A model generated the notes under the pieces. It saw only the letters and a program-made list of their open reading frames with translations. It did not search any database and had not been told where the DNA came from. DNA of 64,000 nucleotides from Ignavibacteriota bacterium (lineage in GTDB: Bacteria > Bacteroidota > Ignavibacteria > Palsa-1295), in NCBI GenBank assembly GCA_963787835.1, contig CAWBEI010000002.1, forward strand, positions 512,001 through 576,000. Direction: 5' to 3'. This document shows positions 46,219 to 50,052 of the stretch, piece by piece; position 1 is the first letter of the stretch; every line of letters starts with the position of its first letter. Both the position numbers and the translations under genes were made by a program.

Positions 46219-46259
46219 ATTACGAATGACAAATGACGAATTTGAGAAGGGCAAATCAA

Positions 46260-47112
46260 ATGAAGCAATTAACGCTATTAATCCTTCTTTCGACCATTAT
46301 TGGCTGTACTGTTGAGATACATGAGTCGCAGCTTCTTTCTCCAAGCAGAGCTTCTATTTTACCGAATGACTCGCTTTCTTTTGGTATTCTTAAGGGTGAA
46401 AATATTGCTGTTGTTTCAGAACCCGGTGTTACTCTTCGGGGTATAAGCCTTCAAAATCCGTCGGCGAATAAAACGATCATCTACTTCTATGGAAATGGCG
46501 GTAAGCTCATAAATAAGGATATAAGAACGACTCTGGATTCGCTTGCGATTAAGTTGGATGCTAATTTTATCTCCTTCGATTATCGAGGATACGGCTTTAG
46601 CGATGGCGACGCATCACTCTCTGCACTTTTGACAGATGCCTTTGAAGCTTTACGATACGGTAAAAGCTCGCTGGAGTTCGAACCAGCCGCTGTATGTGTT
46701 TGGAAGATCAATTGGGGCAGGGCCAGCAATGTTTGTGGCGAGCGAGCGAAAATGCGCTGGGATGATACTTCAATCTCCGCCAGCGTCAGCATCCGAAGTC
46801 ATTCCAACTTGGACAGGCATGATGCCGTGGTACGAAAGTATCTTCGTTTCGCTCAGGCCGGACAGCGCTCTGGCTAACCTCAAACCTCAGACAACCGATC
46901 TCGCAGCCAAAATTAGCGTTCCTACTCTAATTATTCATGGCTCTAAAGATGATTTTGTCTTGCCAAAATTTGGCAAAGAACTATTCGAGAAAATCGTATC
47001 TAAGAATAAGGACTTTATCGAGATTCCTGGCGTCGGCCATTGGGATTTGATCCCGTACAGGTCACCCGTCGTTGATAGCATAAGGTCATTTTTCGACCGA
47101 ATAAATAAATGA
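46260..47112 (+). pseudogene. Alpha/beta-hydrolase lipoprotein split by a frameshift
   Basis: Frame 1 has YFYGNGG and DYRGYGFS; frame 2 has GRSIG, IIHGSKDD and GH. The switch lies near 46641. Confidence 0.8.
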
Positions 47113-47265
47113 AAGGATATTGTTGTGGATGATGGAATTCTAAAAGGGAATCCAGTCATTCTTCATTCTTAATTAACCCTGCCACCATTTCCCTTCTAAT
47201 TACTCTTACCTATCGTGGACGCATCATCGCAAGGATGATCCCCACAACCGCGGTACACTTTACGC

Positions 47266-47985
47266 ATGAACGAAACTGACGAGGTCGGGAGTCTATCTAC
47301 TATAGATAGTCTTCCGTTTGCTGGGCACATTGGCACGAGTCCATCGGGCTTGAGCCACGCTGGCACCAAACAGCGCGAATTTCTCGCGCTGCTGATGCCT
47401 GTGCTCCCAAAACTCTCGCGTTTTTGCCAGGCGATGTGCCGCGATAAACACGGCCCCGACTGGAGCAGCAATGCTGAACGCGCGAAAGAGCTCGTAAGCG
47501 AGACGATCCTGAAAGCCTACGAACACTTCGACAAGATCCGGGAGCCAAATGCTTTTTTGAGCTATCTCTTCACGATCGCAAGCCGTACCAATCGTCACGA
47601 GCGTGTGAGAAGCAAAAGATGGCAGCCGATCTCTGATATTGAAATGGAAGCATTCGCAGACGAACGGAATGCGCCCGATGCAAACGCCGATGTCGCTCAT
47701 CTTTACGCGGCACTCGCTAAGCTTCCTAAAAAGCAGCGCGAAGCCATCATCATGAGCGAGATCACAGGATTAAAATTGGAGGAAGTGGCGAGCATTCAAT
47801 CGTCGTCGCTTTCAGCAGTGAAATCCCGCGTGTCGCGCGGACGCAAAAAGCTCGCAAAACTGCTCGGTGTGAATGAAGAATCAGTTCCCGCTCCGTCGGT
47901 CGGATTAAATCCATCGAACGGAATGGGTAACGGTGGGAGCTTCTATCACACAAAGTTCGCTTTCGAAGCCAAAGAGAAAATATGA
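47266..47985 (+). CDS. ECF RNA polymerase sigma factor
   Basis: ELVSETILKAY..F, FLSYLFTIA, LPKKQREAIIM, VKSRVSRGRKKL. Confidence 0.93.
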   Translation: MNETDEVGSLSTIDSLPFAGHIGTSPSGLSHAGTKQREFLALLMPVLPKLSRFCQAMCRDKHGPDWSSNAERAKELVSETILKAYEHFDKIREPNAFLSYLFTIASRTNRHERVRSKRWQPISDIEMEAFADERNAPDANADVAHLYAALAKLPKKQREAIIMSEITGLKLEEVASIQSSSLSAVKSRVSRGRKKLAKLLGVNEESVPAPSVGLNPSNGMGNGGSFYHTKFAFEAKEKI

Positions 47986-49712
47986 AGAATTCAAATACAT
48001 CTCTGAACGATCTCTTCCGCTCGGCTGGGTCCGAGGCGGAGAAGGATGTTCTCTCGCAAAGCGAAGTCGAGCGGCTGCTTCAGTCAGGCAGGCGTAGTGT
48101 ACCGGTCACACAATCCATTGGGCAGCAGCTTGCACAGCGGCTGCTTTCCACACCACTAAAAATAGGAATGACCGCCATGACTACCGCAGCATGTATTACT
48201 CTCGGACTAATCGCCTTTTGGCCGCAAACATCCTCACAGCCTGTCACTAAAACTCCCATTTCACCCAACGTGGCTTATAGTTCACCTGGGACGGATGCGG
48301 CTACACAGCATTTTGCGACACTGCCAACCAGCAAACCATCATTTGTTGTAAACCCAACAACAGTAGCCACCCTGGCGAATGCAATAATTCCCGCAACCCC
48401 CATTGTAACTGCCGACAGCCTGCAACCCGTCGAGCTTTCGCCCGACCAGCTTGCCAAGCTCGGCATTGTGCTTGAAGATAACGGAGATATTGATTTTTAT
48501 ACGAAAGTCAAGACCACAGGCGAAGTGAATAAATTCGAATTTCCTCCATCATGGGGTATGATTCTGCATCTTGGAGAAACATTCCCTGCGAATGAACTTG
48601 CCAGCATTAATATTCCGACTTATCCACCACGCCTCGTTACACAGCCTAACGGCGCAAAGCGGCTTTTCACTTTCGAAAGTTATTCTACTACGCTTACAAC
48701 TTTGGTTGGGGACCCTAAAACGAATGTACAACACTTGCGTAACGAAATAAATATCATGCCAGCGGGATATGATTCGATACAAGAGAACCCCAATGATGAG
48801 CGGGTCTTGGTCAAGATATTCAGAGACTCAAGCCTGTTAAATTTGGATTCGCTCTCTAAGATTTCGAATGCAAGTTTTAATTTGGACTCACTCTCTAAGG
48901 TTTTGAGTAAAAGTTTTAATTTGGATTCACTCTCTAAGATTTCAAGAGCAAATTTTAACTTGGACTCACTTCCTAAGTTCCCCAACGGAACAAATAATTG
49001 GAGTGCAGATATGCGCGTGTTCGTCAACCATGATCCCAATAACATTGAACATCTCGTGAATGCGATCCATACCATTGACAATGCGGACTCATTCGCTAGC
49101 AAATTAGAGCTAACGGTAGACGAGCTTCACGATTCAGCCGCCACTTCGAATATCGATGCGGATCTCCATGTTGGTAATGTTGAACAAAACCAATTTGAAA
49201 CAATTGTGAGGGCTGTAGGTAGTGCGTTGTCGGAAAAAAACATAATTCAATCCGATTCAGTGATTCGCAATAATGATTTGAATCTAAGCGATTTTTTGTC
49301 AAAATCAATTAATCTCAATCATCTCATCCCCATCCGCGTCATTAACCTAAAGAATGCGGAGCATCCAAACGAACTCATCTTCTGGTATGAGCCAACGCCG
49401 GAGCTAACGGCTGCGATGCCTGCGGCGGTGAATTCCAATCCTGTGCCGCAATCGAAACAGCTTGCGATCTCGGTCTATCCGAATCCGACACTTGGCCCTG
49501 CAACGATACACTATGAACTGGCGGATGCACCGAAAGCCTACTTCAGCGTGCGTAACCTTCTCGGCCAGGAAGTGCTGAACGGCGGCATCACCTCGGGCAC
49601 CACCGGCGATGCACAGCTCGATCTCTCGCAGCTACCGGCCGGCGTCTATCTCCTCGTAACCACCACCGACAATGGTGAGCGCGATGTGGAGCGGGTTGTG
49701 GTAACGAAATAA
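47982..49712 (+). CDS. Anti-sigma-like membrane protein with C-terminal T9SS sorting domain
   Basis: ATGA overlap with the sigma; ~60-aa hydrophilic N-terminus, one TM, Pro/Thr linker; CTD ISVYPNPT...NLLGQEV...LPAGVYLL. Confidence 0.8.
   Translation: MKNSNTSLNDLFRSAGSEAEKDVLSQSEVERLLQSGRRSVPVTQSIGQQLAQRLLSTPLKIGMTAMTTAACITLGLIAFWPQTSSQPVTKTPISPNVAYSSPGTDAATQHFATLPTSKPSFVVNPTTVATLANAIIPATPIVTADSLQPVELSPDQLAKLGIVLEDNGDIDFYTKVKTTGEVNKFEFPPSWGMILHLGETFPANELASINIPTYPPRLVTQPNGAKRLFTFESYSTTLTTLVGDPKTNVQHLRNEINIMPAGYDSIQENPNDERVLVKIFRDSSLLNLDSLSKISNASFNLDSLSKVLSKSFNLDSLSKISRANFNLDSLPKFPNGTNNWSADMRVFVNHDPNNIEHLVNAIHTIDNADSFASKLELTVDELHDSAATSNIDADLHVGNVEQNQFETIVRAVGSALSEKNIIQSDSVIRNNDLNLSDFLSKSINLNHLIPIRVINLKNAEHPNELIFWYEPTPELTAAMPAAVNSNPVPQSKQLAISVYPNPTLGPATIHYELADAPKAYFSVRNLLGQEVLNGGITSGTTGDAQLDLSQLPAGVYLLVTTTDNGERDVERVVVTK
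48837..48977 (+). repeat. 39-bp in-frame tandem repeat (~3.6 copies)
   Basis: Encodes (F/L)NLDSLSKxxxxx. Confidence 0.9.
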
Positions 49713-49722
49713 TTATTGAAAA

Positions 49723-49821
49723 CTGGATCCCCGCATTCGCGGGGATGACATTTGTAAGAATTCTTGGCGCGAAGCGGGACAACATCACATTCTTGTCATT
49801 CCCGCGAACGCGGGAATCCAG
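49723..49821. repeat. Doublet of GTCATTCCCGC...GCGGGAATCCAG palindromes
   Basis: Two inverted copies. Confidence 0.85.
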
Positions 49822-49831
49822 TAATACAAAT

Positions 49832-49866
49832 AAAAAACGAGAGGCAAGTTTGCCTCTCGTTTTTTA
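49832..49866. terminator. Bidirectional intrinsic terminator
   Basis: AAAAAACGAGAGGCAA-GT-TTGCCTCTCGTTTTTT between convergent genes. Confidence 0.85.
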
Positions 49867-49891
49867 TTTGCAGTAATTAAATCAGTTTTAA

Positions 49892-50033
49892 TGTCATCCT
49901 GAGCGTAGCAAAACTCAGTCCGGCCCAAGCGGACTGAGTTTTGCGAAGTCGAAGGATCTGTTGCGGTTATAGCAGAGATCCTTCGACTCCGTTCGTCCCT
50001 CCTTCGTCGGGCCGAACTCCGCTCAGGATGACA
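49892..50033. repeat. TGTCATCCTGAGCG-type palindromic element
   Basis: TGTCATCCTGAGCG/CGCTCAGGATGACA ends; inner GAAGGATCT/AGATCCTTC. Confidence 0.85.
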
Positions 50034-50052
50034 ACTTAAACTGATTCCTTTT

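Follow-up and report, generated by a model that had tools for sequence, protein, structure and literature searches.

Judged from sequence, the closest known family to the gene pair described here is Dma/Reo. The pair, a sigma factor of the extracytoplasmic function (ECF) type plus its downstream partner, lies in a 64,000-nucleotide stretch (the window, whose numbering is used throughout) of contig CAWBEI010000002.1 from an Ignavibacteriota bacterium (assembly GCA_963787835.1). Dma proteins are dual membrane-spanning anti-sigmas, and their cognate sigmas are of group ECF21. In Dma, as here, the gene follows that of an ECF sigma and encodes a short cytoplasmic head, one inner-membrane helix, a disordered periplasmic linker and a C-terminal module addressed to the outer membrane, and the head of Dma1 binds its sigma (PMC10927553). 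The window protein differs in having a folded core domain with a variable insert and in a conserved internal translation start, none being mentioned for Dma in the available portion of that report (PMC10927553). Our partner appears to work most like Dma, although without the barrel: where Dma has an 8-stranded beta-barrel, it ends in a type A C-terminal sorting domain (CTD) belonging to the type IX secretion system, or T9SS.

Several other systems share single traits with this locus. FlgM, the soluble anti-sigma factor of sigma28, is exported whole from the cytoplasm; the partner likewise joins a predicted anti-sigma to an export signal, but its head stays behind an inner-membrane helix. The lambda holin/antiholin gene uses a dual start to give two forms. 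A conserved internal translation start, with long and short forms of different roles, is also found in FhaL/FhaS of the Vibrio cholerae type VI secretion system (PMC13389060). Neither of these cases involves anti-sigma factors, whereas the second start here removes exactly the predicted sigma-binding head. In the SigV/RsiV system of Bacillus subtilis (ECF30), RsiV is anti-sigma, receptor and inhibitor, so that its ectodomain, as proposed here, is both sensor and effector (PMC5014341). The window sigma, in contrast, scores 55.9 bits on NF053879 against a cut-off of 190, its partner has no RsiV-type Pfam domain and no conserved signal-peptidase site, and the effector copy would arise from a second start, not from cleavage only. 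PorA of Porphyromonas gingivalis, which has a T9SS CTD as well, also acts on an ECF sigma, but through the two-component route PorA-PorXY-SigP; it is not described as a membrane-anchored anti-sigma, and its sigma controls T9SS genes (PMC7712824). Ordinary T9SS type A cargo has the same sorting domain, but no cleavable Sec signal peptide was detected here with our own position weight matrix (PWM). The first-pass annotation, made from the letters of the window, knew of no described example, and our searches of the open-access literature, including the main text and part of the supplement of PMC7826278, likewise found no anti-sigma with a T9SS CTD or an internal start.

Our preferred reading, to which we give a probability of roughly 0.45, is that of an autoregulated sigma whose long-form partner would hold it while a headless form would be the main output, in a Dma-like frame with an RsiV-like sensor-effector logic. 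The features on which it builds are as follows.

47266 to 47985, plus strand: ECF sigma-70 factor, 239 aa (TIGR02937, PF04542 and PF08281 over cut-off)
47982 to 49712, plus strand: long form of the partner gene, coding for a predicted anti-sigma factor of 576 aa and overlapping the sigma open reading frame (ORF) by ATGA
47982 to 48167, plus strand: cytoplasmic head, aa 1-62, predicted sigma-binding part, pattern LxxLFxxARxE-P-S-xE-xxLL
48164 to 48179, plus strand: internal ribosome-binding site, with AGGA at 48164-48167, a 9-nt spacer and the ATG of Met66 at 48177-48179
48168 to 48227, plus strand: single transmembrane helix, aa 63-82 (Kyte-Doolittle 1.78 for aa 61-80, the one clear hydrophobic segment)
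48177 to 49712, plus strand: predicted short headless isoform, 511 aa, from Met66, suggested by the conserved internal start
48228 to 48383, plus strand: disordered linker rich in Pro, Thr, Ser and Gln (42-86 aa in the family, median 53)
48408 to 48677, plus strand: N-terminal half of the core domain, aa 143-232
48678 to 49301, plus strand: aa 233-440, variable insert of the core domain, with a tandem repeat of 39 bp
49302 to 49421, plus strand: C-terminal half of the core domain, aa 441-480 (LxPIxV, LIFWYEP)
49458 to 49709, plus strand: T9SS type A CTD, aa 493-576, by profile and fold matches

The internal start carries the central argument. The membrane helix begins with Met-Thr or Met-Ser in 42 of 43 homologous genes (the remaining one has Met-Ile), and a Shine-Dalgarno (SD) core stands 4-16 nt before this ATG in 31 of 42, against a mean of 4.4 and a maximum of 12 in 2000 synonymous recodings; at other internal ATGs it is found in 33 of 573. 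The AGGA is built in different registers, by Lys-Gly or Ile-Gly at 9 nt (13 genes), by Arg-Arg or Arg-Asn with AGG at 8 nt (12) and by Lys-Gly at 6 nt (6), distributed over separate clades of the sigma tree. AGG and AGA are rare codons in this genome (5.8% and 7.6% of Arg codons), and the recurrence of the motif in three registers, including the rare Arg-Arg pair AGG AGA, points to selection at the nucleotide level. ACA, ACT or TCA follows the internal ATG in 40 of 42 genes, mean folding energy is weakest at this start (-2.6 kcal/mol versus -3.5 to -9.5 elsewhere), and the 16S tail carries a canonical anti-SD. A Met near the helix start is present in 82 of 84 CTD-ended representatives, and in the other families of the class 15 of 22 members have the internal Met and 11 the SD core. 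Among 15 sigma-downstream membrane proteins of the genome, SD plus ATG at the helix occurs only in the two that are CTD-ended; the Met66 position is retained in all 33 CTD-ended proteins of the subfamily versus 1 of 4 relatives with the same head and a barrel-like C-terminus. Conserved Met66 and SD core together make two isoforms, the long and the headless form, the likely products of the partner gene. A stem-loop at 48120-48149, 30-55 nt before the internal start, was also seen in the window's subfamily, and two paralog-type genes (L061 and L073) have a palindromic element within the head codons.

The upstream start is genuine as well. The head is conserved and open in frame in 40 of 40 aligned genes and is predicted to form two helices; its ratio of nonsynonymous to synonymous substitution rates (dN/dS, computed from four close relatives) of 0.44 indicates purifying selection. 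Met1 has a strong SD of its own in many relatives, weakened in the window copy, and across 40 aligned head-helix segments Leu8 and Met66 are the sole invariant residues. In every full-length homolog, hydropathy predicts a membrane helix between the head and the export tag. The ATGA-coupled pair of sigma and partner given in the first-pass annotation holds (239-aa and 576-aa ORFs), as does the architecture it had described: a head with LNDLFRS, one transmembrane helix, a Pro/Thr linker, an unnamed domain and a type A CTD. The sigma ORF itself scores 68 bits on TIGR02937 (cut-off 42.9), with Pfam sigma70 r2 and r4_2 above their cut-offs.

The absence of an N-terminal signal peptide, also claimed earlier, is borne out by a PWM built from 159 signal peptides of this genome. 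No signal-peptidase I site is conserved in the family, and the median of the best sites is 2.1, similar to the 2.2 of 13 other anti-sigma helices that remain uncleaved, versus 5.5 for genuine signal peptides. A cut at Thr83-Ser85/Gln86 was weighed but dismissed because that site is not conserved. The earlier annotation had seen a danger to its reading in a true start near the MTAMTT segment, which would give an ordinary signal peptide. Strong start signals do stand at Met66, but they do not refute the long form, the sequence supporting both starts, and the stretch after Met66 has neither a basic n-region nor a conserved cleavage site.

The pairing of sigma and partner is kept well beyond this genome. 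Among 46 core-domain ORFs from 44 loci of this genome and its relatives, 40 have an ECF sigma directly upstream, 29 of these with a 4-nt overlap; the other six comprise four contig ends, one miscalled start (sigma present) and one fusion of a sigma to the C-terminal part of the partner. In that last locus (L064:4727-5788) the N-terminal part of the sigma is joined in frame to the C-terminal half of the core and the CTD, probably via a deletion. Four other families of the class contribute 22 family ORFs, every one of them CTD-ended and 21 of them located behind a sigma, so the possibility raised beforehand that the pairing is not conserved does not apply. A protein search brought up 40 proteins, of which two carry an organism name (Candidatus Kapabacteria or Kapaibacterium), and among 401 genomes of the phylum, with three candidates per genome scored, strong matches were confined to the window's class. 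One representative, available as protein only, is attributed to a Bacteroidia metagenome-assembled genome; metagenome scans for DNA of the barrel-ended and Bacteroidia-like relatives found none.

The head travels with different outer parts. A family search with P0038 gave mostly head matches, and a head-plus-helix profile collected 140 representatives, of which 84 are CTD-ended and 11 have the core but no CTD; the remaining 45 are either fragments or bear different tails, including barrel-like ends, GIN (DUF2807) and FGE-sulfatase domains. Such varied combinations mark the head as a module, as expected for an anti-sigma domain. Comparable heads and helices, likewise with this internal Met, were seen in P0121 and P0145 (FGE-sulfatase) and in P0142, P0149, P0166 and P0167 (DUF2807 GIN), and the dual start may extend more widely among sigma partners of Bacteroidota. 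A survey of CTD genes adjacent to ECF sigmas, proposed in the first-pass annotation, was run in the own genome: among 22 sigma-70-family ORFs, two have CTD-ended partners, namely the window gene and a paralog of 828 aa in which the core-CTD module occurs twice. Roughly seven further ECF partners of this genome combine head, helix and, judged by eye, a barrel-like C-terminus, i.e., they are Dma-like. The paralogous pair (L073, own genome C2:361389-364480, C2 being the contig of the window) has one of its two CTDs internal, and a relative (L042:3533-6823) has three core-plus-CTD modules; promoter, internal SD-ATG and predicted mRNA pairing are the same. Tandem double sigma-partner pairs occupy a single locus in L037, L038 and L043.

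Between linker and export tag lies the domain that may do the sensing. The AlphaFold2 model is of high confidence for aa 143-232 (predicted local distance difference test, pLDDT, mostly 84-96), aa 441-480 and the CTD, and of low confidence for the linker (aa 80-142, pLDDT <50) and much of the insert. In an insert-free module of a relative, both conserved halves fold as one domain (pLDDT 91, predicted template modelling score 0.85). The insert measures 108-354 aa in 53 homologs, with a mean identity of 18% versus 46-60% for core and CTD, and this variability suggests ligand binding. In the window it is enlarged by the tandem repeat, 3.5 copies of 39 bp at 48840-48977 encoding NLDSLSKIS-like units. 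No Pfam family matched the core domain in more than one of 32 members, Foldseek gave no match at E<=0.001 in the PDB or viral libraries, and there was no usable Atlas match, the best VIA match having Z 3.0, a root-mean-square deviation (rmsd) of 3.0 and 64 aligned residues; these blanks do not prove a new fold. A weak match to Glyco_hydro_47, under the cut-off, was rejected. The CTD is canonical: it scores 40.8 bits on TIGR04183 (cut-off 23) and 35.8 on PF18962 (cut-off 27), its top fold matches are the T9SS CTDs of PorU, mirolase, NucA and PorZ (Z 10.4-11.4, rmsd 1.9-2.5, 75-84 aligned), and no other part of the gene shows purifying selection as strong (dN/dS 0.10).

The operon also has a predicted promoter of its own, at the following position.

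47180 to 47210, plus strand: predicted ECF promoter of the operon, -35 TGCCACCATT, -10 TACTCTTACC

The family consensus, TGCGACTTTT-N12-TCTCTTAC, was found in 40 of 40 loci with upstream DNA. It resembles, without being identical to, the ECF30/SigV promoter (TGCAACA or TGAAACTTT followed by CGTC or CTCTAAT; PMC7826278). With a strict pattern, 35 family genomes yielded 32 matches versus 2 for the reversed control, and 30 of the loci were read: 26 lie before a sigma ORF, 2 before a sigma 5' end and 2 before something else. In the own genome 12 PWM matches reach at least 17 bits; the top four precede a tetratricopeptide repeat (TPR)/redoxin-like gene, two sigma genes and one CTD gene (the weakest, 21.6 bits), the operon promoter being third best (25.4 bits), and none of the 12 was assigned to sprA, porV or porU. 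The motif is weaker in distant families (5 of 21 with at least 14 of 19 matches). The sigma is predicted to regulate its own operon. The best match lies in L148:5740-7624 (own genome C2, minus strand), before a signal-peptide gene that overlaps the TPR/redoxin-like ORF in another frame; the two resemble one split gene, a candidate target of these sigmas.

We suggest the following course of events. Very probably, the long form would be made by translational coupling to the sigma and would bind it through the head, keeping it at the inner membrane, and ribosomes would, with nearly as much probability, also start at Met66. That the sigma transcribes mainly its own operon is probable. It is somewhat less so, though still favoured, that both forms insert uncleaved in the inner membrane and that the CTD reaches SprA-PorV, which would give the outer contact that the beta-barrel gives in Dma. 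More tentative, with odds just short of even, is the trigger: an outside ligand on core domain and insert would lead to proteolysis of the long form and free the sigma. The output would be more of the same ectodomain, mostly headless, acting as decoy or surface binder, in the way that RsiV is both sensor and inhibitor.

In the window's subfamily a further level of control may exist, based on two segments of the transcript.

47247 to 47259, plus strand: 5' leader block directly ahead of the sigma start, predicted to form the 5' arm of a long-range mRNA helix
48096 to 48104, plus strand: 3' arm of this helix, head codons Ser39-Val40-Pro41, AGTGTACC

Positions 47251-47259 are the exact complement of 48096-48104. 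In all 11 subfamily loci 47247-47258 is unchanged and AGTGTACC is invariant, synonymous positions included; invariant residues have invariant codons in 3 of 14 cases in the head-helix part versus 3 of 59 in the sigma. Within the operon, the sigma start region has its best duplex partner inside the head at 17 of 40 loci, where 3.1 are expected, and at 11 of 11 of the subfamily; a test with a longer leader was confounded by GC-rich palindromes, and the sigma start region was used instead. The helix appears within the global fold of 17 of 40 loci, versus 2, 4 and 1 of 40 once the head was recoded. It stands at about even odds that in this subfamily the sigma start region pairs with the head-coding mRNA, closing translation of sigma and long form while leaving the internal start open, and we take the pairing to be likely, though as a local refinement. 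A bolder version appears unlikely to us, namely a self-contained sensor-effector circuit switched at the mRNA level, in which the transcript would first give sigma and anti-sigma and then fold, giving only a headless, T9SS-tagged binding domain of new fold in a T9SS without a known GldLM motor.

A number of points weigh against the reading that we prefer. Concerning the pairing, the window's own global fold lacks the long-range helix (probability about 0), the core of the helix is invariant and hence shows no covariation, the third subfamily has it weakly (1 of 18 at p<=3/60), and it is not carried to distant families (3 of 21, with 1.6 expected and several sigma starts uncertain). Genome-wide SD use is weak (13% of 278 unambiguous starts versus 6.8% of internal ATGs), and Bacteroidia ribosomes do not read the SD (PMC9976891). 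The SD core is missing in 11 of 42 genes and the internal Met in 7 of 22 distant members. The counts overstate significance, since the relatives are kin and not independent, and the head-plus-helix profile itself favours Met-containing matches. Head-bearing proteins that lack a CTD often have the internal Met too (37 of the 45 "other" matches, many of them fragments), so it is not tied to the T9SS alone. Lys and Arg are missing from the first six positions of the short form (0 of 42), which likewise lacks a conserved signal-peptidase site, and its exit from the inner membrane is thus left without explanation. The best promoter match (29.7 bits) precedes a different gene, the secreted TPR/redoxin-like one, so the regulon would be more than the operon. 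Finally, no GldK, GldL, GldM or GldN was found, and the export route of this T9SS is therefore unclear.

This last point bears on the rival explanations as well. SprA, four PorV-family genes and PorU exceed their cut-offs in the own genome, in which an iterated profile counts 255 CTD-bearing ORFs. Profile searches of this 98% complete genome did not find GldK, GldL, GldM or GldN, a positive control existing for the GldM model only; that model was positive in 103 of 401 genomes of the phylum and in none of the listed families of the window's class. In F. johnsoniae, no energy is required for substrates to load on SprA-PorV, and the motor is needed for them to leave (PMC10994853). A tethered CTD could thus dock, while a pulling force here would have no known source.

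The earlier reading of the locus as a secretion-sensing switch would use exactly this docking. The tethered CTD would compete with about 250 cargo proteins for SprA-PorV, and engagement or its failure would set cleavage of the long form and hence sigma activity, with the headless form setting the threshold as a competitor for the translocon. The canonical fold and strong conservation of the CTD would fit, as would the 255 CTD ORFs, a linker held at 42-86 aa, the energy-free loading on SprA-PorV (PMC10994853) and the precedent of PorA feeding PorXY-SigP (PMC7712824). We consider it unlikely all the same: the promoter matches of at least 17 bits omit sprA, porV and porU and include one CTD gene only, at 21.6 bits; GldM is in no sampled genome of the class versus 103 of 401 of the phylum; and sensing of flux needs no variable insert of 108-354 aa. 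The FlgM-like signal of secretion flux, put forward in the first-pass annotation, accordingly gives way as the best reading, the conserved promoter having been found weakly before one CTD gene and not before T9SS machinery genes, and no GldK/L/M/N motor having been found to pull a tethered substrate. That annotation contained neither the conserved second start nor the predicted autoregulatory promoter, the predicted mRNA pairing or the Dma/Reo family.

A static tether in the manner of Dma, with the CTD docked stably in an outer-membrane partner in place of the barrel, would sense envelope spacing or damage, the short form being a spacer or buffer. That no motor was found for extracting the CTD agrees with it, and so do the barrel-like C-termini joined to the same head and helix (P0036-P0038, P0073) and the roughly seven sigma partners of the genome that are barrel-ended by eye. 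It leaves unexplained the core domain, its variable insert, the duplication of core with CTD (two modules in the paralog, three in L042) and the loss of Met66 in 3 of 4 barrel-ended relatives, and we rate it somewhat lower still. Ordinary secreted cargo truly starting at Met66, with a non-functional upstream extension and a sigma that merely regulates the gene, would account for the strong internal start signals and for gene callers that sometimes pick Met66 (P0010), but is very improbable given a head open and conserved in 40 of 40 aligned genes (dN/dS 0.44), a strong Met1 SD in many relatives with ATGA coupling, and no basic n-region or cleavage site after Met66.

The two-gene unit is closed by one further feature.

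49832 to 49865, unstranded: terminator-like hairpin flanked on either side by runs of A and T, ending the two-gene unit

This hairpin was judged by reading the letters. Repeat-like palindromes lie 3' of the operon (49720-49820 and 49890-50040), and directly 5' of the sigma promoter (46233-47112) an alpha/beta hydrolase is split into two overlapping ORFs, by a frameshift or a sequence error.

If the autoregulated circuit with two partner forms is true, an anti-sigma gene would encode its own headless twin through a start conserved across an order-level lineage, and the amounts of inhibitor and sensor domain would be uncoupled in the cell. The locus also offers a domain without fold match, and it points to T9SSs in which about 250 cargo genes stand beside no recognisable GldKLMN motor. 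In trans-envelope signalling, the T9SS would then join the Dma barrel as an outer anchor or exit.

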